DNA of 64,000 nucleotides, from positions 2,343,333 to 2,407,332 of the forward strand of contig OZ241976.1 in assembly GCA_965204205.1 (NCBI GenBank), read 5' to 3'. Shown piece by piece: positions 2,137-57,537 of this stretch. This DNA comes from an uncultured Candidatus Binatia bacterium (GTDB lineage Bacteria; Desulfobacterota; Binatia; UBA9968; JAJDTQ01). The notes under the pieces were generated by a model. That model saw only the letters and a list, made by a program, of their open reading frames with translations. It was not told the origin of the DNA and did no database searches. How positions within the stretch are numbered: the stretch's first letter is position 1; each line of letters opens with the position of its first letter. A program made the translations under genes and the position numbers.

Positions 2137-3437
2137 TAGCAGGCCGTGGAAAAACCCACGGATTTGAGTGTTGGTGACTGATGCAAAGGGAATCGGACCC
2201 TCGACGGGCTGGGATAGAGGTCATTCGCACGCCTTTTCATGCCAACGACCGTGGCGCAGACGCACGCCTCCACAGGAAGTGTGGTCACGTGCCCACTCCC
2301 AAGGTGCGCAGCCGCACCAGGTTGTAGGCCGCGAAGGTCAGGGTGAACTGGAAGTCCACCTTCGGAAGCCCCCGATGCTTGAGCTTGCGCAACCCGCCGA
2401 CGGTCTTGGCCCATCCGAAGGCTTCCTCGATCCGCTTGCGCACTCGCTGGCTCTGAGTGTAGCCAGCGTGGCGGGTGGTGCGGCCGTCAATGGCCGAACG
2501 CCGATTGGTGTCGTTCTGCGCCACATGAGGACTCGCGTTCGCCCAGCGCAACCCCTCGACAAAGTCACGGGTATCGTACCCCTTGTCCGCACCCACGGTG
2601 AGCCGGCCCTTGCCGGGTCGCCCCTCGATCATGGACAGCGCCGACTCCCGCTCAGCCCGGCCGCTGGCCTGGGTGGTACGCGTGTCGACGATCAGTCCAT
2701 GGCGGTTGTCCATCAAGGCATGCCCCAGGTAGCACAACTTCGCTTCCTGCCCCTTGCCCTTGCGGTACTGCAGGGCCTGCGGGTCGGTGGTGGACTCATG
2801 GGTCGCATTGCTGCGCTTCTCGCCCCGGAAGTCCTCCTCGGCATTGCGTCCGCCGCCGCCCCGCGGTCCCTCGCCCCCTTTGGGGCGAAACGACTTCATC
2901 GACGCCCAGGCCTCCAGCAGCGTCCCATCGACACTGAAGTGCTCATCCGACAAAAGCCGGGCGTCACGCGCCTGCACCAGGATCTTCGCAAAGAACTCCC
3001 GGGCGATGTCCGAGCCGATCAACCGCTCCCGGTTCTTCGTGAACGTCGAGTGGTCCCACATCGCCTCGTCCATCGACAGCCCCACAAACCACCGGAACAA
3101 GAGGTTGTAGTCCAGTTGCTCCACCAACAGCCGCTCGCTGCGGATCGAGTAAAGCACCTGCAACAGCAACGCCCGCAGCAACTGTTCCGGCGCGATCGAA
3201 GGCCGCCCCGTGTGCGAGTACATCGCCTCCAACTCCCCGGACAGATCTTCCAGCGCCCGGTTCACCATCTCCCGGATCGGTCGCAACGGATGGTCCTTGG
3301 GAACACGGGCTTCCGGCGATACATAGCTGAACATGCCTTCTTGACGCGGATCAGTGCCTCTCATCGACTCCTCCGTCCCAGTACGAACATACAAAATATG
3401 TACCCGCGTCAGACGGACTTTTTCAACAACCTGCTAG
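2137..3437 (-). mobile_element. IS5-family insertion sequence, copy A (about 1.29 kb body flanked by CTAG at both ends)
   Basis: Near-identical to the element at 56236..57537. Imperfect terminal IRs CAGG(C/T)(C/T)GT(G/T)GAAAA. CTAG is present at 2137-2140 and 3434-3437, consistent with IS5-group YTAR targets and 4-bp duplication. Confidence 0.85.
2285..3394 (-). CDS. IS5-family DDE transposase (DUF772 N-terminal region plus DDE_Tnp_1)
   Basis: 369-aa ORF. The N-terminus MFSYVSPEARVPKDHPLRPIR is characteristic of IS5-group transposases. A second copy in the window differs at about nine residues. Confidence 0.9.
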   Translation of the reverse strand: MYVRTGTEESMRGTDPRQEGMFSYVSPEARVPKDHPLRPIREMVNRALEDLSGELEAMYSHTGRPSIAPEQLLRALLLQVLYSIRSERLLVEQLDYNLLFRWFVGLSMDEAMWDHSTFTKNRERLIGSDIAREFFAKILVQARDARLLSDEHFSVDGTLLEAWASMKSFRPKGGEGPRGGGGRNAEEDFRGEKRSNATHESTTDPQALQYRKGKGQEAKLCYLGHALMDNRHGLIVDTRTTQASGRAERESALSMIEGRPGKGRLTVGADKGYDTRDFVEGLRWANASPHVAQNDTNRRSAIDGRTTRHAGYTQSQRVRKRIEEAFGWAKTVGGLRKLKHRGLPKVDFQFTLTFAAYNLVRLRTLGVGT

Positions 3438-4231
3438 CGGAACGTGATCACCGAGCTCACGCCGCGGCCGGCGTCGGTGTGGATCACCTCGCCGGTCATG
3501 ATGCGGGACTGGGACGACGCCAGCAGCAAGTAGGCGGCGGCGTGGTCCTCCGGGACCACGGCGACTTCGAGGAGGTTGTTGCCGAGGCCCGCGGGCGGTC
3601 GGGGAGCGCCGAAGACGTCGTCTCCGCCGGCTCCGGGGGCCAGGGACGGCGCCGCGCGCAGGCCGGTGGCGGTGCCGGACGGCGCCACCCCGTTCACCCG
3701 GACCGTGGGGGCCAGCTCGTTGGCCAACTGCCGCACCAAGCCCAGGGCGGCGTGCTTGGAGGCGACGTACAGGGTCCCGCCGCTCACGTAGTAGGACGAC
3801 GTGGACAGCGTGAACACCATGTTGCCGCGGGTCTTGATCAGCTCGGGGATGGCGGCCTTGGCGCCCAGGAAATAGCCCTTGACATTGACTCCGAGGACCT
3901 CGTCGTAGCCCTTCTCCAGCTCCTCGTCCGATAGCTCCGCCAGGGGCCGTCTGGCGTCGTGGATGCCGGCGTTGCCTACGAACACCGTCAGCTTTCCGAA
4001 CTCCGACACCGCCGCGGCCACCGCCCGGCGGTTGTCCTCCAGGCTGCGCACGTCGCCGGACACCACCGCCACTCCCTCGCCCACCTCGTCCTTCAGCGCG
4101 GCCAGTCGTTCCGCGGAACGGTCGAAGGCCACCACCTTGGCGCCCTCCTCGACGAAACGGACCACCACGGCCTTGCCGATCCCCGAACCGGCCCCGGTCA
4201 CGACCGCCACCTCGTTCTCGAGCCATTGCAT
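3434..4231 (-). CDS. SDR-family short-chain dehydrogenase/reductase
   Basis: TGAGSGIG Rossmann motif, NAG and YxxxK-like catalytic region. Start chosen at MQWLENE (ATG 4231) because an AAGGAG RBS lies 9 nt upstream. The stop TAG lies within the CTAG at the IS5 copy A junction. Confidence 0.85.
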   Translation of the reverse strand: MQWLENEVAVVTGAGSGIGKAVVVRFVEEGAKVVAFDRSAERLAALKDEVGEGVAVVSGDVRSLEDNRRAVAAAVSEFGKLTVFVGNAGIHDARRPLAELSDEELEKGYDEVLGVNVKGYFLGAKAAIPELIKTRGNMVFTLSTSSYYVSGGTLYVASKHAALGLVRQLANELAPTVRVNGVAPSGTATGLRAAPSLAPGAGGDDVFGAPRPPAGLGNNLLEVAVVPEDHAAAYLLLASSQSRIMTGEVIHTDAGRGVSSVITFR

Positions 4232-4438
4232 GGACGTTACCTCCTTGAGTGTGGGCTGTACCATACCAATCGCCGGGCCGGTTCGGAACCGTCCGGCGTC
4301 ACTCCGACCGGCGCCCTTCGGCTTCGCGCCGGCGGCGCGAAGCCGAAGGGCGCCATCCTGCTCGGCAGCAATGGATCAGCGCTTCCTTGACACCGCCACG
4401 CGCCCGGGGATAGAGTCGCCTGAGCGGACGGTGCGTCC

Positions 4439-5520: not shown

Positions 5521-6375
5521 ATGAGCCTGACCGTCAAGCCCGTCTGCCCCGCCGTCGGCGCCGAGATCGAGGGCCTGGATCTGCGCGAGCCGCTGACCGA
5601 GGAAGCCCGTGAACAGATCCTGGACGCCTTTCACGAGTACGTGCTGCTGCTGTTCCGGGGACAGGAACTGACCGAGGATCAGCAGACGGCTTTCGCCACC
5701 ACCTTCGGCGAGTTGGGCAAGCGCACCGTGGGGGCCCGTTTCGTCAAGTCCCCCAAGGACACCTACGCCAACCCGGTGATGATGGTCACCAACCGCAGCG
5801 ACGACGGACCCACGGGCAACACCGCCTCCTTCGGCGACGGCGAGATGTGGTTCCACCACGACACCTGCTTCTACCCGGTGCCCAACATCGTCACCATGCT
5901 GTACGGCATGGAGGTCACCACCAGCGGCGGACTGACGCGTATCGCGAACATGTACCTGGCGTACGACAGTATCCCCCGGGAACTGCGCGACCGGCTGGAG
6001 GGACGAACCGTCCTGCAGGTTTACGACTACAACCGCTACCGCATCGACCCCAACGTGGACATGGCCGGCGCCCGAAGCCACGTGCAGCCCATCTTCATCA
6101 CCCACCCGGTGACCGGCAAGAAAGCGCTCTACGTGAACCGGACCATGACCGCGCACATCGAAGGGATGGACCGCGCCGAGAGCGACGCCATCCTGGACCA
6201 ACTGTTCGAAATCGCCGAGGACGACCGCATCGTTTACGACCACCAGTGGCGGGTGGGCGACCTGCTCATGTGGGACAACCGCTGCTCCACCCACGCGCGC
6301 ACCGACTTCCCCGCCGAGGAGGCGCGAATCCTGCGGCGCTGCACGGTGGCCGGGAAGGAGCCGGTCCACGCGTAG
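5521..6375 (+). CDS. TauD/TfdA-family Fe(II)/2-oxoglutarate-dependent dioxygenase, paralog 1
   Basis: 284 aa. HHD...H metal-binding pattern and an R near the C-terminus. AGGAGG RBS upstream. 55-60% identical to the next gene by eye. Confidence 0.85.
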   Translation: MSLTVKPVCPAVGAEIEGLDLREPLTEEAREQILDAFHEYVLLLFRGQELTEDQQTAFATTFGELGKRTVGARFVKSPKDTYANPVMMVTNRSDDGPTGNTASFGDGEMWFHHDTCFYPVPNIVTMLYGMEVTTSGGLTRIANMYLAYDSIPRELRDRLEGRTVLQVYDYNRYRIDPNVDMAGARSHVQPIFITHPVTGKKALYVNRTMTAHIEGMDRAESDAILDQLFEIAEDDRIVYDHQWRVGDLLMWDNRCSTHARTDFPAEEARILRRCTVAGKEPVHA

Positions 6376-6405: not shown

Positions 6406-7263
6406 ATGAGCTTGAACACAAGACCGCTGTCACCGGCCCTGGGAGTCGAGATCCTCGGACTGGACGTGAGCGAGCCGCTGGATGAAAAGGTCCGGGACGA
6501 GATCCTTGCGGAGTTCTACCAACACGTCGCGCTGCTGTTCCGCGGCCAGGACCTCACGGTGGAGCAGCAGAACCGCTTCACCACCACCTTCGGCGACATC
6601 GGCAAGCGCACCATCGGCCCCCGTCTTCGGAAATCCGCCGACGACATCTACACCACGCCGGTGATGGTGGTGAGCAACATCAAGGAGAACGGCAAGCCGC
6701 TCGAGGGGTCCTCGGCCAACGGCGACCGGGAGATGGGCTTCCACCAGGACACCGCCTTTCACGAGATCCCCGACCACGTCACCATCCTGTACGGCATCGA
6801 GGTGTCGTCCCACGGCGGCCATACCATGGTGACCAACCAGTACGCCGCCTACGACAGCGTCCCGGCCGACCTCAAGACGAAGCTGGAAGGATGCAAGGTG
6901 CTGCAGGTCTACGACTACCAGCGGCACACCGTGGGTCCCGACCTCGATCTGAGCGGCGCCCGCTATTTCATGCAGCCCATCTTCATCACCCACCCGGTCA
7001 CGGGCCGCAAGGCGCTGTACGTGAACCGCATGATGTCCGTCCACATCGAGGGCATGAACCGGGCCGAGAGCGACGCCATCCTGGGCGACCTGTTCGACAT
7101 CACCGAGGACCCGCGCTTCAGGTACGAGCACGTGTGGGAGGTGGGAGACCTGCTGATGTGGGACAACTTCTGCTCGATCCACGCCCGCACGTTCTACCCG
7201 GACGAGGAGCGCCGGCTGCTGCGGCGCACCACCGTGGCCGGCAAGGGCCAGTTGCACGCGTAA
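6406..7263 (+). CDS. TauD/TfdA-family Fe(II)/2-oxoglutarate-dependent dioxygenase, paralog 2
   Basis: 285 aa tandem paralog of 5521..6375. CAGGAG RBS upstream. Confidence 0.85.
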   Translation: MSLNTRPLSPALGVEILGLDVSEPLDEKVRDEILAEFYQHVALLFRGQDLTVEQQNRFTTTFGDIGKRTIGPRLRKSADDIYTTPVMVVSNIKENGKPLEGSSANGDREMGFHQDTAFHEIPDHVTILYGIEVSSHGGHTMVTNQYAAYDSVPADLKTKLEGCKVLQVYDYQRHTVGPDLDLSGARYFMQPIFITHPVTGRKALYVNRMMSVHIEGMNRAESDAILGDLFDITEDPRFRYEHVWEVGDLLMWDNFCSIHARTFYPDEERRLLRRTTVAGKGQLHA

Positions 7264-7980: not shown

Positions 7981-10329
7981 ATGAGCGACGCGGAAAGAGA
8001 CGGTACTAAGGCCAGGCGCGAGCCGCCGCTGGACTTCATCCGCACCATCGTGCGGGACGACCTCGCCGCCGGCAAGCACGCGGGCGGGGTGGTGACGCGT
8101 TTCCCGCCGGAACCCAACGGCTTTCTCCACATCGGCCACGCCAAGTCCATCTGCCTCAACTTCGGGGTCGCCGGAGAGTTCGGCGGGCGTTGCAACCTGC
8201 GCTTCGACGACACCGACCCCGCCAAGGAAGACACGCTTTTCGTCGAAGCCATCAAGGACAACATCCGCTGGCTGGGCTTCGACTGGGGAGAGGGCCTCTA
8301 CAACGCTTCCGACTACTTCGAGGAGCTCTACCGGTTCGCCGTGCAGCTCATCGAGCGGGGCGGCGCCTACGTCTGCAGCCTGAGCGAGGCGGAGATTCGC
8401 GAGACCCGGGGCACGGTGACGGAACCGGGCCGCGGGAGCCCGCACCGCGGCCGCGGCGTCGACGAGAACCTGGACCTCTTCGCGCGCATGCGCGACGGGG
8501 AGTTCCCGGACGGCGCCCACGTGCTGCGGGCGAAGATCGACATGGCGTCCCCGAACATGAAGATGCGCGATCCCGTGATCTACCGCATCCGCCACGTCAC
8601 CCACCACCACACCGGCGACGCCTGGCCCATCTACCCCATGTACGACTTCGCCCATCCGCTGTCGGATGCCCTGGAAGGCGTCACCCACTCGCTCTGCACG
8701 CTGGAGTTCGAGAACAACCGCGAGTTCTACGACTGGATTCTCGGACAGGTGGACGTCCCTTCCACGCCGCGCCAGATCGAGTTCGCCCGGCTGAACCTCG
8801 ACTACACCGTCATGAGCAAGCGCCGGCTGCTGGAGTTGGTGGAGGAGAAGCACGTAGCCGGCTGGGACGATCCGCGCATGCCCACCCTGGCCGGGCTGAG
8901 GCGGCGCGGCTACACACCGGAGGCGATCCGCAACTTCTGCCACAGCGTGGGCATCGCCAAGAGCGACAACACGGTGGAGATCGGGCAACTCGAGCACTTC
9001 GTCCGGGACGACCTGAACCACAAGGCGCCGCGGGTGTTGGCGGTGGAGCGGCCGCTCAAGGTGGTCCTCACCAACTTCCCGGAGGACCGCGTTGAGGAGC
9101 TGGAAGCCCCTTACTTCCCCCACGACGTTCCCAGGGAGGGTTCGCGCACCATCCCCTTTTCCCGCGAGCTCTACATCGAACGGGACGACTTCCTCGAAGA
9201 GCCTCCCAAGGGATACCATCGGCTGGCGCCGGGCCGGGAAGTCCGGCTGCGCTACGCCTACGTCATCCGCTGCGACGAGGCGGTCAAGGACCCCGACACC
9301 GGGGCGGTGCGGGAGTTGCGTTGTTCCTACGACCCGGAGACCCGGAGCGGCTCCGACAGGAGCGGCAAAAAGGTCCAGGGTACCATCCAATGGGTGTCCG
9401 CCGCGCATGCCCTGGAAGCCGAGTTGCGGCTCTACGACCGGCTGTTCTCGGCGCCGGACCCCCAGGGCGATCCGGGCCGCGACTACCGCGAGCTCATGAA
9501 CCCCCGGTCCCTGGAAACCGTCAGCGGCCGGGTGGAGCCGAGCCTGGCCGGCGCGCGTGCGGGCGACCGCTTCCAGTTCGAACGGCTGGGATACTTCTGC
9601 GTGGACCCGGACTCCACGGCCGATGCCCTGGTCTTCAACCGCATCGTGACGCTCCGGGACTCGTGGGCCAAGATCGTGCGGCGAGGCGAGGGCGGCGGAG
9701 AGCGCCGGCGTTCGCGCGGGACGCCGGCAGCCCGCTCGAGCGCCGGCAAGGTTCCGGCCCGGACGCGCGGACCCGTGGACCCGGGATTGCCGGCGGCCCG
9801 GCGTTCGCGCATGGAGCACTACCGCGACCGGTTGGGCCTCGCGCCCGGCGACGCGCTGCTGCTGGCCACGGAGGACGCCCCGGCCGCGTTCTTCGACGAG
9901 GCGGTCCGCGGCCACGACAATCCCAGGGCCGTGGCCAACTGGGTCGTCAACGAGTTGCGCCCGGCGCTGAAGGACAAGCCCCTGGAGTCACTGCCGCTGA
10001 CGCCGGCGGCGCTGGCGGAGCTGGTGGCTCTCATCGACGGCCAGGCCATTTCCGGCAACGCCGCCAAGCAGGTCTTCGCGATGTTGCTCGAGGACGGGGG
10101 GAGCCCGGCGGGGATCGTCGAAAGACTGGGGCTCCGCCAGGTGGCCGACGCCGGACAGATCGAGCCCGCGGTGGACGCGGTCATCGCCGCCAACCCGGCC
10201 AACGTCGCCCTCTATCGTGAAGGAAAGACCAGTCTGCTCGGATTCTTCGTCGGCCAGGTGATGAAATCCACCAACGGCAAGGCCGACCCCCGCCTGGTCA
10301 ACGAGTTGCTGCGCTCGAAGCTCGCGTGA
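7981..10329 (+). CDS. glnS: Glutaminyl-tRNA synthetase with C-terminal YqeY/GatB-like extension
   Basis: HIGH motif (FLHIGHAKS), VMSKR (KMSKS variant) and a class I core of about 555 aa. This is followed by a roughly 220-aa Arg-rich linker plus a YqeY-like helical domain, as in Deinococcus-type GlnRS. Confidence 0.9.
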
Positions 10330-11996: not shown

Positions 11997-12138
11997 TCCG
12001 CTCCCTCCTTCGAAGTGTGTTCGGGTCTGCTGTCCCAACACTTCATTGTACCGCGTTTTCTTGAGGTCCAGAAATGGCGAAGGTGCCGCGATCGGTTTCT
12101 CCTGACACGAAAGCGATACGAAGAGGTGCCGCTCCTCC

Positions 12139-14616
12139 TCAGAACTGCATTCCGAGGCTGAGAAAGAAGGTGCGCCCCCAACCGGCTTCCGTGGGGCCGT
12201 CCACGGCACTCGGGTTGGAGGTGTCCACCGCGAGGCCGGTGTCGGTGACGTTGAATACGCCCGCCGACACGCGCGCACCTTTCAGACCCAGCGGGTCGGC
12301 CCAGTCCAGCACCAGATCGTGGCCGGTCCAGGACCTGAAAGTTCCGGTACCCGTCCGGTTCTTGTAGCCGGCGCGGTAATAGGTGGTCCAGATGGCACTC
12401 AGGCCGCCCCGCCGCGCAAGGATTCCCATGCGGGCGACATTCTTGGGGAGGGGAAACCGGTCCTCTTCGCCCGCGATTCGGAGTTCGGTGCTGGTGACGT
12501 GCCGCCAGGCCGCGCGCAGGCCGACCACTCCCCAGCCCGTCCGGAAGCCCCCGCCGAGCCGTGTATTGATGCCCGAGAGATCGGTCTCGACGACGTTTGC
12601 ATACTTGGCGTGAATCGTGATGTCGCCGGCGGTGCGCTCGATGCAGTTCTCCCTTTCGCCCTCCGCGCATTCATGCAGGTTTTCCATGTGCCAATCCGCG
12701 CTGTTCTGCCCCGGCAGACCGGAGCGAGAAAGCCGATACCATTCCACGTTCAGGAAGAACGGCCCCTTGCGGGCCTCGGCGCCGGCTGCGAGCCTTTCGG
12801 TGTCCCAAGGATCGAGTTCCGGGTTGCCCACCGTCACGCGCGTCACCTGCCGTGGGTTGAGCTCGTCGCAAGAGCGGGGCGGGCTCCCGCTCCCCGGATC
12901 GCACTCGATGTAGGGGTGGCCCTGCACCTCCGAGCTGTAGAGATACAGCATGGAGGGCGGCCTCTCTCCCGCGCCCCAGGAGCCGCGCAGGGTGATGAGG
13001 TCGCTCAGCCGGTAGTCGGCCCCAAGGCGCCAGGACGCCATTCCGCCCACATCGTCGGTTTCGTCCCCGCGCGCCGCGACCCTGAGATCCAGGTTCCCGG
13101 CCAGCGGCAGTGACATCTCGGCAAAGGCCGCGGCGGCCTTGCGCTCGCCTTCATAACTGGCTCCACCGGAACCAAGCACCTGTGACACGTCATAGGTCTC
13201 GCCGTCATTGCTCCGATAGAGGGAGATGTCACGCGCTTTCCCGGTGCCCAGCTCGAGCCCCGCGGTCCATGCGGAATCCCGGCCGCCTATGGCGAATCCG
13301 GACCCTTCCAGCGCCATCCGGGCATCCAGGCCGTCCCAGCCGAAATCGTTCTCCAGCCGCAGGCTGCTGTACTCGATGGCATCCAAATGCTCTTGGGCGT
13401 TCGAGAACGGGTCCGCGAGGTTGTAGCGTCCTGCCCGGATTTCCTCTGTTATCCTTTCGGAGTGCACGAAGGTGTTGCCGTCCACGAAACCGTCCAGCCG
13501 AGAGGCGCTGATACGTGCATCGTAGCCGAGGTCCTCCGTTATCCGCCCTTCGAGGCCGACGGAAACGTCGTATTCCTCGGTGTCCGTCAGCCAGTCCCGG
13601 TTGCCGTGGCGGACAAAGCGATGCGCCGCCACGAACAGGTCGTTGCCGTCCGCCTCGAAGGACGAGCCGGCTGCTTCGTTGATCTCATCCCGCAAGCCCG
13701 GGTTCGGCGTGAACGTGAACGAATCGATGGACGGCGCGTAGCGGAACGCCGCATCGCCCCGCGTTACGTTCACGTCCAGGTGCAGCTCGGACTCTTCGGT
13801 GAGCGGATGGTCCAGGTTCAGGATCGCGCTCTTCTGCTCGTAGCTCCTGGTGTTCCACATGATCGCGCCGTAGGCGAAACCGCAGCCCTTGTCGCCAGGC
13901 GAGGTGATGCTCGGAGGGTTTCTGAGGGGGCCGGTATAGCCTCTCGCCGGGTCGCACTCCCCCAGCGCGACCGACCTCACGCCAGTCGGCATTCCGCCTT
14001 CATCTCGCTGGACGACCCAGACCGTGTTGCCGCCGACGCTGACGTTCTGCGCTTCGTTGAACGCGCCGTCCTTCTTCCAGACGGAACGGCTGTAGTCCCT
14101 GCTCCGGGCGGTAATCTCCTGGCGTGTGAGGACGTCCGCGCCCAGGGTCATGCGGCCCTTGCCCACCGCGCCGCCCCAGAAGACGCTTCCCTGCCAGCCG
14201 TCGCCGCCGTCCCGGCTCGGCATCCGCGCGAGCGCTCGCGTCTCGAAGCCGTCCAGGTCGGTCCGCAGCACGACGTTGAGGGCGCCGCGCACGGCACTGC
14301 CGCCGAGAGTGCCCAGGCTGTCGCCGCTGAGAAGCTCGAGGCGCTCGATGGCCGAAAGCGGCAAGGTGTCCAGATCGCCGGCAGTAGTGGCGTAGGGCCT
14401 GCCGTCGACCATGACGAGCAGGGACTGCCCTCCGGTGAGGAAGTAGCGGGCGATGCCGGTGTCCAGCAGTTCCTGCAGCGTCTGGGCGCCGGAACGCTCG
14501 ATAAAATCCCGCTCGAACTTGGCGATGACGCGCGGGGCGGGCGCCAGCGGGCCGGCATGGACCGCGCTCACCGCCAGTACGGCGAAAACGGCAAGCAAAG
14601 CCAAGAACCTCTTCAT
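12139..14616 (-). CDS. TonB-dependent outer-membrane receptor
   Basis: Signal peptide MKRFLALLAVFAVLAVSAVHA. Plug-domain motifs near the N-terminus. Long beta-rich body and a terminal aromatic F. Confidence 0.8.
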   Translation of the reverse strand: MKRFLALLAVFAVLAVSAVHAGPLAPAPRVIAKFERDFIERSGAQTLQELLDTGIARYFLTGGQSLLVMVDGRPYATTAGDLDTLPLSAIERLELLSGDSLGTLGGSAVRGALNVVLRTDLDGFETRALARMPSRDGGDGWQGSVFWGGAVGKGRMTLGADVLTRQEITARSRDYSRSVWKKDGAFNEAQNVSVGGNTVWVVQRDEGGMPTGVRSVALGECDPARGYTGPLRNPPSITSPGDKGCGFAYGAIMWNTRSYEQKSAILNLDHPLTEESELHLDVNVTRGDAAFRYAPSIDSFTFTPNPGLRDEINEAAGSSFEADGNDLFVAAHRFVRHGNRDWLTDTEEYDVSVGLEGRITEDLGYDARISASRLDGFVDGNTFVHSERITEEIRAGRYNLADPFSNAQEHLDAIEYSSLRLENDFGWDGLDARMALEGSGFAIGGRDSAWTAGLELGTGKARDISLYRSNDGETYDVSQVLGSGGASYEGERKAAAAFAEMSLPLAGNLDLRVAARGDETDDVGGMASWRLGADYRLSDLITLRGSWGAGERPPSMLYLYSSEVQGHPYIECDPGSGSPPRSCDELNPRQVTRVTVGNPELDPWDTERLAAGAEARKGPFFLNVEWYRLSRSGLPGQNSADWHMENLHECAEGERENCIERTAGDITIHAKYANVVETDLSGINTRLGGGFRTGWGVVGLRAAWRHVTSTELRIAGEEDRFPLPKNVARMGILARRGGLSAIWTTYYRAGYKNRTGTGTFRSWTGHDLVLDWADPLGLKGARVSAGVFNVTDTGLAVDTSNPSAVDGPTEAGWGRTFFLSLGMQF

Positions 14617-14648
14617 CGAAAAACTCCTTCCCTTCACACCTGACCGGT

Positions 14649-16292
14649 TCAACGTGCGCCCCGGACTTCCGTGGTGATGAGGTCCAGGATGTCCTGGCTC
14701 GTGATCGAGCCGACGAACGCCTTGGACTCCCGGTCGATCACCGGTATCGCCGTGAGCGAGCTCTCCGTCATCCGCTGGAGGGCGTCTTCCGCCGGCTCGT
14801 CCGCCCACGTATTCGGCGTGCTGGTGCGCGCAATCTTTCCCAGGTCGGTGTCCGCCCACGCATGCTTGGGCAGATACCTGAGCATGGCGAGGGACACGAT
14901 GCCCGCCGATCCGTCACTGCCCTTGATCACGTAGTCCTGTTGTCCGGGCGCGATCCACCGGTCGGCGAACTCGCGAACCGTCAGGTCCGTCTCCGGGTGA
15001 GGATGGTTGCGGTCGATGATGTCGCCGACGGTGATGTCGTCGAGGGCGAAGCGAATCATGGACGGCGGCACCGGCTGGGGCAACGACACAGGATCCGTGG
15101 GCTTGGCCCGGCTTACCGCGAAGCTGATGGCCGGAGGAGTCAGCAGAATGTAGGCGAGCATGATGAGCACGAACAACGAGAAGATGTCGGACCCGATGAG
15201 GCCGTGTTCCAGGAGCACGAGCAGCACGGCGATCTCGGCGACGCCCTTGGCCATCAGGCCGGTGGCGATGGTGAAGGGCATCTCCAGACGGGCCGCCGAT
15301 GCCCCCAGCCAGGCGCCGGCGAAGTTCCCCACCAACGGCACCACGATCAGCGCCACGATGGTCCATATCTGCAACTCGGTGAACGACAGGCTGAGGTGCA
15401 GCCCCGCCGAGCTGAAGAAGAGCGGCACGAAGAAGCCGTCCGCGACGCTCTTCATTCCCGGGATGATATCCCGGTGAACCTGGTGAGGCAGCCGCGAGAG
15501 CGCCACCCCCAGGAGCAACGCCCCGAGGGAGCCGTGCAGACCGATCCGCTCCGCCCCCACCACGGCGATGAACAGGACGCCGAGAATCAGCCCGAACGAC
15601 AGTTGCGGGACCCGCAGCAACCGTTCCAGCAACTCGATCAGCGGTGGGATGACCCGGCCGGCCAGAATCCAGGTGCCCACGATGAAGACGGCGATCTGTC
15701 CAAGCAGGAGCAGCACGCCGTCCAGGCTCACGTGCTCGGCGTGCTCGCCGATGGTGAACCCTATGATCAGCAGCACGAGCAGCTCGGCGATGAGCGCGAC
15801 GGTGAACATTTGGAGCCCGATGGGTTGCCGCAGGCGGTCCGCGTCGATCAACACCTTGGCGACAACGCCCAGGCTGGTGAGAGACAGTACCCCGGCCAAC
15901 GCCAGCGAACCGCTGAAGTCGAGACCCAGGCCGAAGTCGAAGATCAGGTCGAAGGTGACCACCAGGGAGGCCATGATCGGGATCACGACCGATATGACCG
16001 CGGCGATGAAGAACCGGCGATGGATCGCCGCCATGAACGCCGAGACGTCGAGCTCGTCCAGCCCGATCAGGAAGAAATAGAGGAAGATGCCGATGCTGAG
16101 AAGGACCTGCAGGTAGCTGTTGAGCTCGACGATGCCCGTTATCGGGCCGAGGAGAATCCCCGTGGCGGTGTAGGCGACGATGGAGTTCAGCCGGAAGCGC
16201 TGAAGAATGCCTTCCGCCAGCTTGGCGACGACAATGAGCAACCCGGTGGAGAGCAGCGCGTCTTCGAGCATGTCGGATGTTGCGGTCGGCAA
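14649..16292 (-). CDS. Cation:proton antiporter (CPA family Na+/H+ exchanger) with C-terminal CBS-pair domain
   Basis: 10-12 TM helices, then a roughly 130-aa soluble tail with a tandem CBS-like pattern. Confidence 0.8.
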   Translation of the reverse strand: MPTATSDMLEDALLSTGLLIVVAKLAEGILQRFRLNSIVAYTATGILLGPITGIVELNSYLQVLLSIGIFLYFFLIGLDELDVSAFMAAIHRRFFIAAVISVVIPIMASLVVTFDLIFDFGLGLDFSGSLALAGVLSLTSLGVVAKVLIDADRLRQPIGLQMFTVALIAELLVLLIIGFTIGEHAEHVSLDGVLLLLGQIAVFIVGTWILAGRVIPPLIELLERLLRVPQLSFGLILGVLFIAVVGAERIGLHGSLGALLLGVALSRLPHQVHRDIIPGMKSVADGFFVPLFFSSAGLHLSLSFTELQIWTIVALIVVPLVGNFAGAWLGASAARLEMPFTIATGLMAKGVAEIAVLLVLLEHGLIGSDIFSLFVLIMLAYILLTPPAISFAVSRAKPTDPVSLPQPVPPSMIRFALDDITVGDIIDRNHPHPETDLTVREFADRWIAPGQQDYVIKGSDGSAGIVSLAMLRYLPKHAWADTDLGKIARTSTPNTWADEPAEDALQRMTESSLTAIPVIDRESKAFVGSITSQDILDLITTEVRGAR

Positions 16293-16413
16293 CGAAACCG
16301 GGGTGCGTCCATGGCAAAGGAGAAGCCACTTCGACGCCCGGCGGCCGATCCCGCGGGCACTCTAGTCGATTCGAGGTGGCGGTGCAACCCGCCGACTCGC
16401 GGCGCTCCGTGCC

Positions 16414-16971
16414 TCAAGCGGGGTTCAATCCGAGGCGCTCGTCACGCCGGCGCAGCCAGACGATGAAGGGCAAGGCGAGCACCACCATCCAGGACTTCCC
16501 GAGCACTTGTCCCAGCAGGAACTCGATGCTGCCGAAGGCCAAGTACAGGAACAGGATGCTGTCGACGATGAGGCCCACGATGCTGCTGGCGAATACGGCC
16601 AGGATCAGCCGGCGCCGCTGCAACGGCGTATAGACGGCAAGGTCGGCGGTCTCCGAGAAGAGAAAGGCCGCGCCGGATGCCACCACCAGCGCCGGCGGCG
16701 CGACGAGCGCCGACAACAGGGCGCCGACGACCACGGCCACCGCCGCCCACCGGACGCCGATCCGGCGCTGCACCAGGTCACGGAGCACGAACGCCAGGCC
16801 GATCACCACCACCCCGCTCGGCGCCATGACCCCGGGCGCCACCGGAATCAGGCACGGCGAGTTCGGCGGGCACACCGTCCCCACGTTCCCGATGAGCCAG
16901 TTGGCGGCCGGGATGCACAAACCGAACCCGATTAGAAAAAGGACCCCTTCCCTGCGCCTTCGACGTTCCAT
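16414..16971 (-). CDS. VUT-family (YhhQ/queuosine-precursor transporter-like, COG1738) membrane protein
   Basis: Small polytopic protein with the conserved internal pattern of the DUF165/VUT family. Start chosen at MERRRRREG. Confidence 0.6.
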   Translation of the reverse strand: MERRRRREGVLFLIGFGLCIPAANWLIGNVGTVCPPNSPCLIPVAPGVMAPSGVVVIGLAFVLRDLVQRRIGVRWAAVAVVVGALLSALVAPPALVVASGAAFLFSETADLAVYTPLQRRRLILAVFASSIVGLIVDSILFLYLAFGSIEFLLGQVLGKSWMVVLALPFIVWLRRRDERLGLNPA

Positions 16972-17087
16972 ATCGGACACCAGCGTACCTCCCACCTGTG
17001 CACCTTCTAGCGGGTTCGTCCCGCGGTGCGCAAGGTCGCGGCGTCGTAACGCTACAGCGAGTCAGCGCAGACCGTCGGATACCGCGC

Positions 17088-17546
17088 TCATGCCCGGGAG
17101 CGGTAGCGCTTCGGCGGCTGCGGGTTGTTGGCGGGGTTGGTGTCGTGTTTCGCCATGGCGGTAACCACCGAGCCGCCCACCAGGGGCTTCAGATCGGCCT
17201 CCAGCGCGTCGGCTTTGTCCTTGTCGTAGACCTCGTCGCCGTCCACGTAGAGGGTGAAGGACTTGATGTACCTCGCCTTCTTCACGGGGTCCTCGATGGT
17301 GGCCCGGGTCCAGGCGTAGAGCGGGAATCGGTCGACGCCCTGCCGCTCGGCCTCGGCGCAATAGCCGGCGAAGGCGTCGTACTGGCATTGCAGCACGGCG
17401 TTGTGTCTGGCGAGTATGTCGTCGAGCGGCTCGAGGTCCGGATGCCCCTCACCGGCCCGGGCGGCCTTGGCGGCCTCGTCCGCGAGATCGATGCGTAGCT
17501 GGTACCGCCATCGGCCGGCGGTCCCTTTGGAAGCGTCCTCTGCCAT
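17088..17546 (-). CDS. Hypothetical protein
   Basis: 152-aa ORF with host-like codon bias, lying between the VUT and MFS genes. No recognisable motif. Confidence 0.4.
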   Translation of the reverse strand: MAEDASKGTAGRWRYQLRIDLADEAAKAARAGEGHPDLEPLDDILARHNAVLQCQYDAFAGYCAEAERQGVDRFPLYAWTRATIEDPVKKARYIKSFTLYVDGDEVYDKDKADALEADLKPLVGGSVVTAMAKHDTNPANNPQPPKRYRSRA

Positions 17547-17628
17547 AGCCTCATCTCCGGTCCCGAGTCTGATATCGAACGGCCTGCTCCGGCAACCGCG
17601 CCGCGGCCAGCGCTCCGCGAGCCTTCGC

Positions 17629-18801
17629 CTACCGCTCCAGCGTCTCCTTTGCGACGAACGCCAGCCCGGCGGCGGCGCCCAGCAGAATCGGCGCGTAGAA
17701 GAGGAACGTCGTGCCGGCGCTCATGAGGTCCACGAGCCAGCCGCCCACCAGCGGTCCCATCACCGCGCCGGACTCGCCCACGGTCCGGCGCAACCCCTGA
17801 AGGCGTCCCCGGGCCTCCGCCGGGATCACGTCGTAGGTGGACACCGCCAGGGCGCCCAGGGAGATGCCCTGGGCAAGGCCGATGACTACCATGATGACCG
17901 TGAGCTCGGACAGCGTCGAGGCGAACGGGAAGGCAAGGAAGGCGATGCCCGGGAGCGCCGTGCTGGGGACGCTGGCATACTTGCGGCCGACGCGGTCGGT
18001 GATGAAGCCCGCGGGCAGGATCATCAGCAGGACGAAAACGCCGGAAACGCCGAACAGGCCGCCCACGTGCGCCGCGGAGAATCCGAGCTCGACCCCGGCG
18101 TAAAGCGGCAGCATGCCCTGGAGCGTGGTGCGGTACATCTGCATGCTGAAAGTCGCGATCACCAGCGTCACGAAGGTGGCGCGCAGGCCGGGAAGGACGT
18201 CCGAGACCTTTCCCCACCAGGCGATCTTGCCCACGTGTCCCCGCGCCGTGTCTTTCCGGGCCAGCACCGCGGTCACGAACACCGCCAGGGCGACGGCCGC
18301 GTAGACCGTGAACACCATCCTGAACCCCACCCACTGGGCAATGATCCCGCCCGCCACCGGACCGAGGGCCATGCCCGCCGACTTGACCCCCATGAAGCCG
18401 CTCAGCAGGCGCCCCCGCTGACGCCGGGGCACCATCTCGACGCCCGACACCTCGCGCCCCATGGTCCAGACGCTGTCGCCGACGCCGGCCAGGAACTGCC
18501 CGAGAAAGAGCAGAGCGAAGTAGGGGGTGACGGCGGTCATGAAGGCGCCGCTCAGCACCAAGGCGCTCCCCACGAGCATGGTAACCTTGGCGCCGTAGCG
18601 GTCCAGGAGCAAGCCCGCCGGGATCAGGACGACGGTCCGGCCCAGGGCGTGGGCGGTCACCACCTGCACCGCCAGTCCCGCCGACACCGCGAAGGACTCC
18701 GCCAGCAAGGGGATGGTGGGGAACACCATACCCTGCCCCAGGCTCATGACGAGGACCGTGCTGTAAAGAAGTGCGAGGCTGCCGGCCCCTGGGCCCGTCA
18801 T
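17629..18801 (-). CDS. MFS transporter
   Basis: 390 aa, 12 TM helices, DRxGRK-like loop motif (DRYGAKV; DRVGRKY). Start MTGPGAGSL confirmed by cat at 18799-18801. The 1250-aa ORF-track extension is antisense to other genes. Confidence 0.8.
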   Translation of the reverse strand: MTGPGAGSLALLYSTVLVMSLGQGMVFPTIPLLAESFAVSAGLAVQVVTAHALGRTVVLIPAGLLLDRYGAKVTMLVGSALVLSGAFMTAVTPYFALLFLGQFLAGVGDSVWTMGREVSGVEMVPRRQRGRLLSGFMGVKSAGMALGPVAGGIIAQWVGFRMVFTVYAAVALAVFVTAVLARKDTARGHVGKIAWWGKVSDVLPGLRATFVTLVIATFSMQMYRTTLQGMLPLYAGVELGFSAAHVGGLFGVSGVFVLLMILPAGFITDRVGRKYASVPSTALPGIAFLAFPFASTLSELTVIMVVIGLAQGISLGALAVSTYDVIPAEARGRLQGLRRTVGESGAVMGPLVGGWLVDLMSAGTTFLFYAPILLGAAAGLAFVAKETLER

Positions 18802-18827
18802 CGAGAAGCACCCGGAGCCGGAACCGG

Positions 18828-19424
18828 TCAGGGCTTGGAACCGCCGTAGAGGGAAAGTCCGGAGCTTTTCTGATGGCAGGACACGTCCCCGAAGCCGGCG
18901 TTCCGGAACCAGCCGAGCTGGTCGTCCATCGATGCCGAGCCGCGGTCGAGGTTGAAGAAGCGGCCGCCGGAGCGCACGCGTCCGAAGATCTCCTCGTAGA
19001 CCGCCTGGATGGTGTCCCCCACCCGAACGTTGTGGATCGCGTTGCAGGAAACCACGAGATCGAACTCGCCGTCCGCCACCTGGCTCCAGTTCTTCTTGCT
19101 GAAGTCCGAGATCACGTACTCGAACCGACCTTCCAGCTCGTTCATGCGTTCGCCGCCCAGCTTGGCCATGGCCGCCGAGCCGTCGTGGCACACCGCGGTG
19201 GACCCGGGGAAGGTCTCCAGGAGGAACTTGCTGAGCGCCCCGTAGCCGCAACCCACATCCATGAAACGGAAGGCCGCCTCGCGGTCGAAAGGCACGAGGC
19301 TTGCCAGCAACGCGAACTGCTTGGCTCGAAGCGTCTCGTTGCGCATTTGGCGTTGCGCCCAATCCTCCACGTATTCCTCGGAGTTCCAATCGTGTTGACG
19401 CAACGGGTCGGTGATCTGTGCCAT
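18828..19424 (-). CDS. Class I SAM-dependent methyltransferase
   Basis: Motif I VGCGYGALS, motif post-I acidic residue, and small size (198 aa from MAQITDPLR). Confidence 0.75.
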   Translation of the reverse strand: MAQITDPLRQHDWNSEEYVEDWAQRQMRNETLRAKQFALLASLVPFDREAAFRFMDVGCGYGALSKFLLETFPGSTAVCHDGSAAMAKLGGERMNELEGRFEYVISDFSKKNWSQVADGEFDLVVSCNAIHNVRVGDTIQAVYEEIFGRVRSGGRFFNLDRGSASMDDQLGWFRNAGFGDVSCHQKSSGLSLYGGSKP

Positions 19425-19686
19425 GTGTGCTTCTCGACCTCCTGTGGAGTGGCTGTGTCCTGATCCCTGTCCGGCGGCGGTGTCGGTGGTGAACGGGCGC
19501 GGACGCGCTGAAACCGGCCCTTGCACCTCGTGTCGGACACGGGCGGGATTGAGAACCCGTCCCTACAATTAGATGAAATAGGCGCGGATGTCCAGGTTGA
19601 CACCCGGCCACGGCGGACCTATACGGGCTATAGGCCACGGACCGCCGGTTTCCGCGCGACATCGGTCCCGGCCCGGAGGCGGATGC

Positions 19687-40090: not shown

Positions 40091-40120
40091 ACAAAGTCAT
40101 CGCGCCTTGCCGACGACGAA

Positions 40121-40148: not shown

Positions 40149-40162
40149 TACGGGACACCACA

Positions 40163-41497
40163 CTAGCGACTCTCGGGGTCGAACACCTCCGTCGCGTCGA
40201 GCTTGCGCTGATACTCCAGGTACTCCTGCTTCGTCATGCGCGGCTTGTCGTTCTCGAGGATCCGCCGCGCCGCCCCGGCGTCGTCGTGCAGGAGGTCGAT
40301 GGCGGTCATGGCCAGGAGCTTGGCCGACTTGACGTACACCGAATCCTGGTCCACCAGAAGGTAGCCGTTGGTATGGCCGCCGCCCTGGGCGCCGGCGACG
40401 TAGGGCTGCACCGCCGGCATGATATGGGCCAGGTCGCCGAAGTCGGTGCTGCTGGTGCGGTGCTCGGTGCCGAGCGCGAACTGGCCGGCGCCGAACAACT
40501 CCTCCGCGTTCCCGCCCCACAGACGGGCCATGGCCTCGTTGTTGGTCTGAGGCAGGTAACCCGGTACCGTGGTGATCTCCACGCTTGCGCCGACCGCCAT
40601 GGCGGCGCCACGGAGCGCGTTGTCTACCTTGCGGTTGGCGTCGAGGATGCCCTCCAGGGTCTTGCCGCGAATGAAGGTCTCGACGGTCACCTCCGCCGGC
40701 ACCACGCTTACGGCGTCGCCGCCCCGGGTGATGATCGGATGGATGCGAATGGTGTCGTCATCGTAGAAGGTCTCGCGCTGGTAGGCGATGGCGGTCATGG
40801 CCAGGTTGGCGGCGTTGAGGGCGTTGATGCCCTTTTGCGGGCTCCCGCCGGCGTGCGCCGCCTTGCCGATGAAGCGTATCTTCTTGATGACGGCGCCGTT
40901 GGACGACCGTGCAACGTGGGAGGCGAGGGTGTCGGTCTTGGTATGGAACATCATCGCCAGGTCGACGTCGTCGAAGTGGCCGAGCCGGATGAGCTCCGCC
41001 TTGCCCGAAAGAAACTCGAGCTCGTCCCGCGCCTTGCGCTGCATGCGCCCGTCGACGTCGATCATCTCTTCGGCCGGAACGGCGAAGAACACCAGCGAAC
41101 CGCTGAGTTCCGGCAACACCGCGGCGGACAGCAGGCCCATGGCCGCGCCCACCATCCCCGCCACCTGCGCGTTGTGGCCGCAGGCATGGGCCGCGCCGGT
41201 TCGGGGATCGGCATGGGGGTGGTCCGGCACCCGGAGCGCGTCCAGCTCACCGAGTATGGCCAGTGTCGGACCCGGGCCGCCGCAGTCGCGGCGGCCCTTG
41301 ACGCCGGTGATGGCCAGACCCCGCCGCGGCTCGACCCCGAGCCCCTGGAGCCGCGCGGCTACCAGGTCCGCGGTGTTGTTCTCGTTGAAGCCCGTCTCCG
41401 GGTTGCGCAGGATCGTCTCGCCGACGTCCACGATCTCCCCCCTGCGGGCGTCGATGACCCGGCACGCCTCGGCCTTGAGATCCTCCCTGGAGGTCAT
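40163..41497 (-). CDS. M20-family metallohydrolase (amidohydrolase/hippurate hydrolase-like)
   Basis: 444 aa. Metal-binding H/D/E pattern of the M20 peptidase family (HACGH; H.K.D). Start MTSREDL, cat confirmed at 41495-41497. Confidence 0.8.
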   Translation of the reverse strand: MTSREDLKAEACRVIDARRGEIVDVGETILRNPETGFNENNTADLVAARLQGLGVEPRRGLAITGVKGRRDCGGPGPTLAILGELDALRVPDHPHADPRTGAAHACGHNAQVAGMVGAAMGLLSAAVLPELSGSLVFFAVPAEEMIDVDGRMQRKARDELEFLSGKAELIRLGHFDDVDLAMMFHTKTDTLASHVARSSNGAVIKKIRFIGKAAHAGGSPQKGINALNAANLAMTAIAYQRETFYDDDTIRIHPIITRGGDAVSVVPAEVTVETFIRGKTLEGILDANRKVDNALRGAAMAVGASVEITTVPGYLPQTNNEAMARLWGGNAEELFGAGQFALGTEHRTSSTDFGDLAHIMPAVQPYVAGAQGGGHTNGYLLVDQDSVYVKSAKLLAMTAIDLLHDDAGAARRILENDKPRMTKQEYLEYQRKLDATEVFDPESR

Positions 41498-55076: not shown

Positions 55077-56174
55077 ATGGCGGAAGCCGCAACTCTCGAA
55101 GAAATCAAGGACCGCATCCGCAAGCGCGTGGGCAGGCGGAGCCCGTTCCACCTGATGGATGCGGCGGAAGCCGAAGGCGTGCTGGCCGAGCTCAGCAGCC
55201 TCGAAGCCGACGCCTGGGCGGAAGCCTGGAGCAGACCCGGCGCACGCTGGCAGAAGACCGCGAAGGAAGCAGAGGAAAAGGGAAACGCCGATGAGGCCAG
55301 GGACGCCTACTTCCAGGCCGCCGCCTTCTACGGCACCGGCCGCCATCCCTTCCCCAGCTCTCCCGGCAAGCAGGAAGCCTACCGCAAGACCATCGAGAAC
55401 TACCTCGCCGCGGCGCGCTACTTCGATCCTCCGCTGGAGCGCATCGCCCTCCCCTTGCGGGACAAGGACGTGGTGGGCTACCTGCGCCTGCCCGCCAAAC
55501 GGCCGGCACCGCTGATCATGCACTGGGGAGGCATCGACAACTGGAAGGAGGATCGCCACAACTTCGTGGAGTCCATGCTCGCCGAGGACTGGGGCTGCTT
55601 CATCATGGACAGCCCCGGCACCGGAGAGTCGCCGGTGCCGGCGTCGGATACCGCCCACGAGGTCTACAGCACCGCGCTGCACTACCTTGCCACCCGGCCC
55701 GAGGTAGACCCGGCCCGCATCGCCGCCCTGGGCGCCAGCTTCGGCGGCTACTGGTCCACCAAGCTGGCCCACGTGGAGCCCGACCGGCTGTGCGCCGCGG
55801 TCAACTGGGGCGGCGGCATCCATGGCTTCTTCCAGCCCGAGTGGCAGCAGCGGTCCCGCAACGCCTCGTCCTACCTCTTCGACCTCATCGAGGCCCGCGC
55901 CAACCTCTTCGGCAAGCGGACCTTCGAGGAGCTGTGCGAGGTCATGCCCATCCTCTCCCTCAAGGACCAGGGTCTGCTCGACAAGCCCTGCGCCCCCATG
56001 CTGCTGGTCAACGGCAAGGACGACCTCCAGGTCCCCATCGACGACTTCTTCATGCTGCTGGAGTGCGGCAGCCCCAAGGCCATGCGCCTCTTCCCCGGCG
56101 GCCACATGGGCGAGTCCCCGGACGTGTTCCCGACGATACTGCGGTGGCTGCATAGAGAGCTGGACGGGGAGTGA
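55077..56174 (+). CDS. Alpha/beta hydrolase (FrsA/DUF1100-like esterase)
   Basis: GASFGG nucleophile elbow, a C-terminal D and H (GGHMGE). GGAGGA RBS. A decayed duplicate of its last roughly 190 bp lies at 60833..61025. Confidence 0.75.
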   Translation: MAEAATLEEIKDRIRKRVGRRSPFHLMDAAEAEGVLAELSSLEADAWAEAWSRPGARWQKTAKEAEEKGNADEARDAYFQAAAFYGTGRHPFPSSPGKQEAYRKTIENYLAAARYFDPPLERIALPLRDKDVVGYLRLPAKRPAPLIMHWGGIDNWKEDRHNFVESMLAEDWGCFIMDSPGTGESPVPASDTAHEVYSTALHYLATRPEVDPARIAALGASFGGYWSTKLAHVEPDRLCAAVNWGGGIHGFFQPEWQQRSRNASSYLFDLIEARANLFGKRTFEELCEVMPILSLKDQGLLDKPCAPMLLVNGKDDLQVPIDDFFMLLECGSPKAMRLFPGGHMGESPDVFPTILRWLHRELDGE

Positions 56175-56235
56175 ACGGACACCGTGGACCCTGGCAAGGC
56201 AAGCATGAACGCGCACGTTGCTGGAAAGGCGAAGA

Positions 56236-57537
56236 CTAGCAGGTTGTTGAAAAGGTCCGTCTGACGCGGGTACATATTTTGTATGTTCGTACTGGGACGG
56301 AGGAGTCGATGAGAGGCACTGATCCGCGTCAAGAAGGCATGTTCAGCTATGTGTCGCCGGAAGCCCGTGTTCCCAAGGACCATCCGTTGCGACCGATCCG
56401 GGAGATGGTGAACCGGGCGCTGGAAGATCTGTCCGGGGAGTTGGAGGCGATGTACTCGCACACGGGGCGGCCTTCGATCGCGCCGGAACAGTTGCTGCGG
56501 GCGTTGCTGTTGCAGGTGCTTTACTCGATCCGCAGCGAACGGCTGTTGGTGGAGCAACTGGACTACAATCTTTTGTTCCGTTGGTTTGTGGGACTGTCGA
56601 TGGACGAGGCGATGTGGGACCACTCGACGTTCACGAAGAACCGGGAGCGGTTGATCGGCTCGGACATCGCCCGGGAGTTCTTTGCGAAGATCCTGGTGCA
56701 GGCGCGTGACGCCCGGCTCTTGTCGGATGAGCACTTCAGCGTGGATGGCACGCTGCTGGAGGCGTGGGCGTCGATGAAGTCGTTTCGCCCCAAGGGGGGC
56801 GCGGGACCGCAGGGCGGCGGCGGGCGCAACGCCGAGGAGGACTTTCGGGGGGAGAAGCGCAGCAATGCGACCCATGAGTCTACCACCGATCCGCAGGCAC
56901 GGCAGTACCGCAAGGGCAAGGGGCAGGAGGCGAAGTTGTGCTACCTGGGGCATGCCTTGATGGACAACCGCCATGGACTGATCGTCGATACGCGCACCAC
57001 CCAGGCCAGCGGACGGGCTGAGCGGGAGTCGGCGCTGGCCATGATCGAGGCGCGACCCGGCAAGGGCCGGCTCACCGTGGGTGCGGACAAGGGGTACGAT
57101 ACCCGTGACTTTGTCGAGGGGTTGCGCTGGGCGAACGCGAGTCCTCATGTGGCACAGAACGACACCAACCGGCGTTCGGCCATTGATGGCCGCACCACCC
57201 GCCACCCTGGCTACGCTCACAGCCAACGGGTGCGCAAGCGGATCGAGGAAGCCTTCGGATGGGCCAAGACCGTCGGCGGGTTGCGCAAGCTCAAGCATCG
57301 GGGGCTTCCGAAGGTGGGCTTCCAGTTCACCCTGACCTTCGCGGCCTACAATCTGGTGCGGCTGCGCACCTTGGGAGTGGGCACGTGACCACACTTCCTG
57401 TGGAGGCGTGCGTCTGCGCCACGGTCGTTGGCATGAAAAGGCGTGCGAATGACCTCTATCCCAGCCCGTCGAGGGTCCGATTCCCTTTGCATCAGTCACC
57501 AACACTCAAATCCGTGGGTTTTTCCACGGCCTGCTAG
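56236..57537 (+). mobile_element. IS5-family insertion sequence, copy B (inverted relative to copy A)
   Basis: Same termini as copy A, with CTAG at 56236-56239 and 57534-57537. One mismatch to copy A over the 80-bp left end compared. Confidence 0.85.
56279..57388 (+). CDS. IS5-family DDE transposase
   Basis: 369 aa. About nine residue differences from the copy at 2285..3394. Confidence 0.9.
   Translation: MYVRTGTEESMRGTDPRQEGMFSYVSPEARVPKDHPLRPIREMVNRALEDLSGELEAMYSHTGRPSIAPEQLLRALLLQVLYSIRSERLLVEQLDYNLLFRWFVGLSMDEAMWDHSTFTKNRERLIGSDIAREFFAKILVQARDARLLSDEHFSVDGTLLEAWASMKSFRPKGGAGPQGGGGRNAEEDFRGEKRSNATHESTTDPQARQYRKGKGQEAKLCYLGHALMDNRHGLIVDTRTTQASGRAERESALAMIEARPGKGRLTVGADKGYDTRDFVEGLRWANASPHVAQNDTNRRSAIDGRTTRHPGYAHSQRVRKRIEEAFGWAKTVGGLRKLKHRGLPKVGFQFTLTFAAYNLVRLRTLGVGT

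Follow-up and report, generated by a model that had tools for sequence, protein, structure and literature searches.

Insertion of IS5, an insertion sequence (IS) of Escherichia coli, duplicates a Py-T-A-Pu target, most frequently CTAG (PMC5493358), and inverted repeats are a standard substrate for inversion (bioRxiv 10.1101/2022.03.16.484558). The stretch of 64,000 nucleotides analysed here (the window, whose first letter is position 1), taken from contig OZ241976.1 of an uncultured Candidatus Binatia bacterium, holds two copies of an IS5-family element, A and B, that lie in inverted orientation at the two ends of a 52.8-kb segment, an arrangement which recalls both Tn5/Tn10-type composite transposons and the repeat pairs of chromosomal inversions. 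It appears to have arisen, with a probability that we put at about 0.8, from two simple insertions, independent of each other, in which slightly different isoforms of one IS5-family IS entered rare CTAG sites of an otherwise ancestral chromosome. This is the ordinary behaviour of a very common IS group, in which only the mosaic identity of the two copies and the insertion of one of them into the CTAG tip of a repeat resembling a miniature inverted-repeat transposable element (MITE) are mildly unusual.

The inverted pair and the gene order of IS-less relatives

A repeat search over the whole window returned one long inverted pair only, with arms at 2136-3437 and 56236-57537 (1302 nt each, 97% complementary) which, CTAG flanks included, are separated by 52,798 nt, and a search with the end motifs found neither solo ends nor further copies of the element in the window. 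An earlier reading made from the letters alone (the sequence-only reading) had described two inverted IS5-family copies around a 52.8-kb segment, with CTAG at both sides of each; the single repeat pair bears this out, CTAG is present at 4/4 junctions, and the coordinates given were right apart from the start, 2137, which falls one base inside the left CTAG. The alignment of the two copies that it had proposed as a check shows, in a gapless comparison, 39 substitutions and 0 indels, i.e., 97.0% DNA identity, as compared to 97.6% for the transposases (9 residue differences over 369 amino acids, aa), for which about 98% had been claimed. The longest identical runs measure 185, 181, 125 and 102 bp. 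To call the copies near-identical is correct as far as their high similarity and inverted orientation are concerned, but they are not recent sisters, being 3% apart, with nearly all of the differences synonymous and the similarity mosaic.

The history of the locus was read from relatives found among metagenome assemblies of the European Nucleotide Archive, at 82-93% DNA identity and in some cases as circular contigs (3.65 and 3.97 Mb), over window positions 1-16.3, 22.9-25.2 and 46.5-56.2 kb and over the outer flanks. The circular 3.97-Mb contig is ERZ25070917:ctg125739, with a FrsA homologue at 1,320,309-1,321,406; SDR homologues lie at about 379 kb in ERZ25069412:ctg853653 and at about 3.218 Mb in ERZ24894574:ctg6941c. 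Four of the relatives (L084, L085, L088 and L089) are collinear with the window over 1-16.3 kb and four others (L090-L093) over 46.5-56.2 kb. At the junction of copy A the decisive relative is L088, a 695-kb contig whose short-chain dehydrogenase/reductase (SDR) is 92% identical in aa, at a DNA identity of 88-90%, and in which NhaP, ferritin, cytochromes, GlnRS, glyoxalase, two successive TauD genes and NicX are followed by the SDR, a 66-bp spacer, TctB, TctA and TctC, with no IS. Window positions 1-1974 and those from 3449 onward align to adjacent L088 positions, 14 bp in L088 standing in place of 1474 bp in the window (MITE-like repeat and IS). L088 is an empty site for copy A, of the sort that the sequence-only reading had suggested looking for in related genomes. 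In L084, whose SDR is 97% identical in aa, a small toxin-antitoxin-like insert lies between SDR and TctB, again with no IS.

At the junction of copy B, L090-L093 (FrsA 90-91% identical in aa) have kept the series radical-SAM, amidohydrolase, PNPOx, UbiX, RFK, XdhC, XdhC, CoxE, CoxD, TPR and FrsA. Homology to L090 and L091 ends at 56164-56178, a few bases from the FrsA stop codon, and restarts at a pyridoxal-dependent decarboxylase (60997, L091) or at GST (L090, where the restart is put at 61470 or at 62701). Beyond the intervening island the window stretch 61038-63427 matches L091 with its decarboxylase and L090 with its GST. The island itself holds Mrr and DUF2283 in L090 (11103-12824), an IS1595 transposase with a methyltransferase/restriction system in L091 (11089-19951), and UvrD, an S8 peptidase and an AAA protein in L092. 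The order FrsA, island, decarboxylase, GST is conserved, and every genome compared has its own cargo.

Since relatives without the IS, at about 88-92% DNA identity, keep the gene order across both junctions, the segment would be ancestral and the two IS copies separate insertions. The GC content of the segment is that of the left flank and of the conserved genes to the right of the island, and the segment appears to be core chromosome in its ancestral orientation that has never moved as a unit. Both insertions probably post-date the split from the relatives compared. Some points weigh against this reading: no single relative was read across both junctions, and the interval from about 16 to 46 kb was only spot-checked (L083, 22.9-25.2 kb); for copy B there is no precise empty site, the island content differing in every relative, and an exact search for its inner flank in Joint Genome Institute (JGI) metagenomes gave 0 matches.

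On this reading copy A would have hit the CTAG at the tip of the MITE-like repeat, between the convergent SDR and TctB genes; its position is exactly in the terminal CTAG of that repeat. The CTAG, probably duplicated, is now the source of the SDR stop codon, and the SDR C-terminus reads ...TFR* in the window, as against ...RQS* in L084 and ...RQG* in L088. Further copies of the repeat occur in L088 (6772-6960 and 18383-18549) and in L091/L092 (4690-4825), with a partial one at window positions 40041-40167; they are intergenic, with a conserved core and the consensus ends CTAGTGT..TGTCTGG...CCAGACA..ACACTAG. With CTAG at their tips, such repeats therefore create preferred IS5 targets. The repeat has no Rfam match; scanned over its full length for Rfam families at the gathering threshold and for tRNAs, the window gave no hit. 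Copy B would have entered a 110-bp spacer at the start of the island, downstream of the FrsA-like gene.

Table 1. Positions of the two IS copies, their flanks and neighbouring features in the window (IRL and IRR, left and right terminal inverted repeats; ORF, open reading frame).
Feature	Position	Strand	Remarks
TctB	1417-1899	plus	outer neighbour of copy A
Palindromic MITE-like repeat	1974-2139		165 bp; self-complementary; absent from the matching L088 spacer
CTAG, outer flank of copy A	2136-2139		overlaps the final bases of the MITE-like repeat
IS5-family element, copy A	2140-3433	transposase on minus	1294 bp; IRR 2140-2161, IRL 3412-3433; termini read; outside copies L081, L082 and L094 agree on the boundaries
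Transposase, copy A	2285-3364	minus	359 aa from ATG; TTG at 3394 extends the ORF to 369 aa
CTAG, inner flank of copy A	3434-3437		read on the minus strand, gives the SDR gene its TAG stop codon
SDR (HcaB/BphB-like dehydrogenase)	3434-4231	minus	abuts copy A
Intervening segment	3438-56235		52.8 kb; collinear with relatives where compared
glnS	7981-10329		GlnRS, 782 aa, with C-terminal GatB/YqeY domain
FrsA-like hydrolase	55077-56174	plus	last conserved gene inside junction B
Strain-variable island	56179-60996		copy B, ATPase, unknown ORF, IS4-family element; GC down to 53%
CTAG, inner flank of copy B	56236-56239
IS5-family element, copy B	56240-57533	plus	1294 bp; IRL 56240-56261, IRR 57512-57533; end motifs located
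Transposase, copy B	56309-57388	plus	359 aa from ATG; 369 aa from TTG at 56279
CTAG, outer flank of copy B	57534-57537
AAA_15/AAA_21 ATPase	57589-58965		in island
160-aa ORF	58962-59444		in island; no family assigned
IS4-family element	59456-60777		1322 bp; in island

Family, target sites and divergence of the two copies

The transposases carry the Pfam domains DUF772 (PF05598, 6e-26), DDE_Tnp_1 (PF01609, 1e-13) and DDE_Tnp_1_6, and score 297-298 bits (copy A 296.8) with the NCBIfam IS5-family model NF033581, well over its cut-off of 140, and 221-226 bits with the IS1182 model, under its cut-off of 270. This places both copies in the IS5 family (IS5 group), in agreement with the family proposed from the letters, and the length of 1294 bp (about 1-1.5 kb for an IS), the single transposase ORF and the short terminal inverted repeats fit the assignment. 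The elements begin with CAGG and end with CCTG, their imperfect terminal inverted repeats reading CAGGTTGTTGAAAAAGTCC and CAGGCCGTGGAAAAACC; over their first 15 positions, the ends CAGGTTGTTGAAAAA and CAGGCCGTGGAAAAA agree at 12, and copies outside the window carry identical ends. The transposase ORF is uninterrupted in A and in B, one ORF per element, and its likely start is the ATG at 3364 (A) or 56309 (B), preferred over TTG because homologues within this very large family (>8000 database proteins with E < 1e-30) are 359-361 aa long. In an alignment of 116 homologues, all 16 near-invariant D/E columns (16/16) are kept in both copies, while four fairly conserved positions of copy A (L198, A300, T303 and D337) depart from the family consensus, which copy B follows there. 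Both copies would seem to be transposition-competent.

The outside copy L081 reaches at most 94% DNA identity to the window IS. In L082, within 14780-19685, only a few kb separate a further copy, 88% identical in DNA, from genes for a TrwC relaxase and a TrwB/TraG coupling protein; L082 comes from sample ERZ25069412, which is also the source of the host relative L088, and relatives of the IS thus ride conjugative elements in that sample. Such a copy adjacent to conjugation genes would be a route for importing IS variants.

Concerning the target, CTAG is palindromic and the same at all four junctions, and a duplication of 4 bp, of TA (2 bp) or of nothing fits the window equally; because the four flanks are one palindrome, they are silent on composite transposition and on past recombination. 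More is gained from copies elsewhere. The flanks of the closest relatives (CTAA-IS-CTAA in L081, CTAG-IS-CTAG in L082 and L094) favour a 4-bp duplication and agree with the YTAR target, CTAG included, that had been named for the element; the truncated copy of L083 has TTAG at its left flank. When the flanks of 66 related metagenomic copies were tallied by anchoring on the CAGG termini, YTAR accounted for 121 of 131 flanking 4-mers (CTAG 69, CTAA 25, TTAG 18, TTAA 9), and the two 4-mers were equal in 31 of 58 complete pairs, 6 of these being non-palindromic direct repeats. Without the anchor, the terminal inverted repeats of 80 metagenomic copies ran on into the palindromic YTAR flanks. CTAG occurs 19 times in the 64-kb window, as against about 202 occurrences expected from base composition, an about ten-fold under-representation; the IS therefore picks rare sites, and 4 of the 19 are the flanks of A and B.

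Mirror-image flanks (CTAA-IS-TTAG or TTAG-IS-CTAA) were observed in seven related copies from JGI metagenomes (L098, L100, L102, L103, L124, L131 and L147), more than random chimeras would yield. They may reflect a duplication of TA alone next to a terminal base that varies, products of inversion between ISs, or assembly artefacts.

The divergence of A and B bears on how the two copies came to be in one chromosome. Synonymous divergence (dS) is 0.114 and nonsynonymous divergence (dN) 0.011, with dN/dS 0.095, and 30 of the 38 in-ORF differences are at third codon positions; as divergence is mostly synonymous, the copies would have diverged as working transposase genes and not as decaying residents. 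The differences are distributed as a mosaic, element regions 1-300, 301-700, 701-1117 and 1118-1294 holding 3, 21, 15 and 0 differences between A and B, and 15, 16, 22 and 21 between A and L081. The centre thus differs by 4-5% and the last 177 bp are identical, although across the family this stretch evolves faster than the rest of the element and is 12% away from the nearest outside relative. By the binomial, the probability that none of the 39 differences (0/39) falls in the last 177 bp is about 0.003 with a uniform rate and falls to about 3e-6 if the rate follows the A-L081 profile. The identical ends would be most simply explained by recombination or gene conversion among IS copies, in which A could have exchanged sequence with B or with a third copy at another place of the genome, or the exchange could have preceded insertion. 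The two copies probably descend from distinct active lineages and did not diverge in place.

The alternative, that one copy was born from the other by transposition in this genome and that the 3% accumulated in place, appears unlikely to us. A and B are mutually closest overall (97%, as against no more than 94% to L081), and neither insertion is present in relatives at about 90% DNA identity, so that both are fairly young. However, a resident IS is expected to drift neutrally, at variance with the low dN/dS, and in positions 301-700 copy A is nearer to L081 than to B while the fastest-evolving 177 bp are the same in A and B. Given this mosaic, recombination or separate ancestry is needed, and simple in-place divergence does not suffice. 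More generally, region-by-region divergence can expose exchange between IS copies.

Inversion, composite transposition and the content of the segment

An inverted repeat of 1294 bp at 97.0% identity is a substrate for homologous recombination, and a RecA-dependent crossover between the copies may invert the segment, with no sign that it has done so; a 3% mismatch would lower the crossover rate. Inversion, if it occurred, would reverse the orientation of about 45 genes, and by a tally of ORF coordinates about 63% of the segment's coding sequence lies on the minus strand. All compared relatives that span a junction show the orientation of the window. It is improbable, in our estimate, that A and B are in active recombinational contact, with the identical 177-bp and the near-identical 300-bp ends as conversion tracts and both orientations of the segment present in the population. 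Such contact would flip about 45 genes, glnS included, relative to replication, and the two orientations would make one more IS-mediated inversion polymorphism, a phenomenon already well known.

Very improbable, in turn, is that an earlier inversion mediated by the ISs produced the arrangement seen in the window. The inverted repeats do share 97% identity and the long identical runs given above (185, 181 and 125 bp), the mosaic similarity shows sequence exchange among IS copies of the lineage, and inverted repeats are linked to inversions across bacteria (bioRxiv 10.1101/2022.03.16.484558); nonetheless the gene order at both junctions equals that of five independent IS-less relatives. Because an inversion would join TctB to FrsA and the SDR to the island, neither of which is seen, the assembly would hold no past inversion. 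The sequence-only reading had allowed for recombinational inversion of the segment; a history of the segment as an inverted block is not supported, as TctB adjoins the SDR in L088, and FrsA, island and decarboxylase or GST follow one another in L091 and L090, as they do in the window. The junctions between flanks and IS ends are blind to inversion, because none of the four is altered by a crossover within the IS.

The same reading had considered that the two copies might mobilise the segment as a composite element. That the 52.8-kb segment was acquired, or has moved, together with both ISs as a unit that used the outer (IRR) ends can be given hardly any credence, even if two intact inverted copies of one IS bracket the segment and its outermost flanks are the same 4-mer: CTAG is the commonest target of the family and stands on all four flanks, which makes the match uninformative. 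At both ends of the segment the genes inside and outside the IS are contiguous in IS-less relatives, the empty site in L088 contradicts a common arrival, the GC content is like that of the left flank and of the conserved genes right of the island, and the cargo comprises about 45 core metabolic genes besides the single-copy glnS. The IS does stand on both sides of a cargo, but cargo and ISs do not behave as a unit. As to an assembly artefact, with a single multi-copy IS misplaced or its copies collapsed, ISs do often break or confuse assemblies, and many related metagenomic contigs have unequal flanks, but the two copies differ at 39 positions and each sits in unique sequence with the neighbours expected from relatives on both sides, so that this too deserves almost no weight.

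By Pfam the segment encodes the SDR, a NicX-like protein, two TauD proteins, GlnRS-YqeY, NhaP, cytochrome c, a TonB-dependent receptor, ferritin, UbiD, UbiX, hydantoinase A/B, several amidohydrolases, an amidase, a radical-SAM/SPASM protein, XdhC, CoxE, CoxD, TPR and the FrsA-like hydrolase. The presence of glnS, which had been used as an argument against transposition as a unit, was confirmed and the argument stands; the respiratory genes mentioned with it are a looser description, which is right for one cytochrome c and otherwise covers only UbiD/UbiX and maturation genes of the CoxD/CoxE/XdhC type. Among the full-length matches listed for GlnRS are Sorangium and metagenome-assembled genomes of Myxococcales, Gemmatimonadales and Longimicrobiales, at 52-61% identity, the best of those listed reaching 61% (Sorangium); the protein is too conserved to have given usable synteny. 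The C-terminal GatB/YqeY domain gives GlnRS an architecture that we take to be the one of Deinococcus GlnRS.

Within the segment, about 2.65 kb at 11998-14650, with a TonB-dependent-receptor-like ORF (12139-14859) between ferritin and NhaP, correspond to about 165 bp in L088, and are an insertion/deletion difference within the otherwise "core" segment. The two TauD genes are tandem paralogues of the TauD/TfdA dioxygenase family (5521-6375 and 6406-7263; a direct repeat of 71-76% DNA identity), kept as a pair in L084, L085 and L088 and single in L089. In the island, the ATPase has NsnB as its best PADLOC match (4e-49), with weaker matches to AriA, GajA and PtuA, and the 160-aa ORF coupled to it has none in Pfam, NCBIfam or PADLOC; the two, translationally coupled and placed between IS5 copy B and the IS4-family element, form a candidate defence pair. 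The IS4-family element ends in terminal inverted repeats of 19 nt (95% complementary), is flanked by a clean duplication of 9 bp, GGCTCCACT, at 59447-59455 and 60778-60786, and encodes a transposase on the minus strand (59475-60716) that scores 224 bits with NCBIfam NF033592, whose cut-off is 115.

The case adds an unnamed IS5-group element, in two isoforms, to an uncultured lineage whose genomes measure about 4 Mb, which is little beyond bookkeeping. It also suggests that a large block between two inverted ISs ought to be compared with relatives before it is called a composite element, and that with a palindromic target the flanking duplications are uninformative about rearrangement.

Comparison with known systems

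With Tn5/Tn10-type composite transposons the locus shares its geometry, two inverted copies of one IS around a segment, while the DNA that they bracket here is core chromosome, syntenic with the flanks in IS-less relatives and with no sign of movement. With chromosomal inversions mediated by ISs or other repeats it has in common a 1.3-kb inverted repeat of 97% identity within one region of a chromosome arm, and differs in that only the ancestral orientation of the segment was observed.

As for the element itself, its nearest named relative among annotated plasmids is the ISAzs10 family (Azospirillum sp. B510), an annotated IS5-like element whose transposase aligns over the full length (99% coverage) with only 67% aa identity; by what we take to be the usual ISfinder thresholds, the element of the window would be a new, unnamed IS. 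E. coli IS5 has the ends GGAAGGTG..., whereas the window element starts with CAGG..., encodes a transposase of 359 aa and resides in an uncultured lineage labelled "Deltaproteobacteria bacterium" at NCBI. The two are alike in having, as is typical of the IS5 group, one transposase only, of the DDE type and with DUF772 as its N-terminal domain, a length of 1.2-1.3 kb and short imperfect terminal inverted repeats, and in inserting at Py-T-A-Pu, preferably at CTAG; the 4 bp are duplicated by E. coli IS5 (PMC5493358) and probably by the window element as well.

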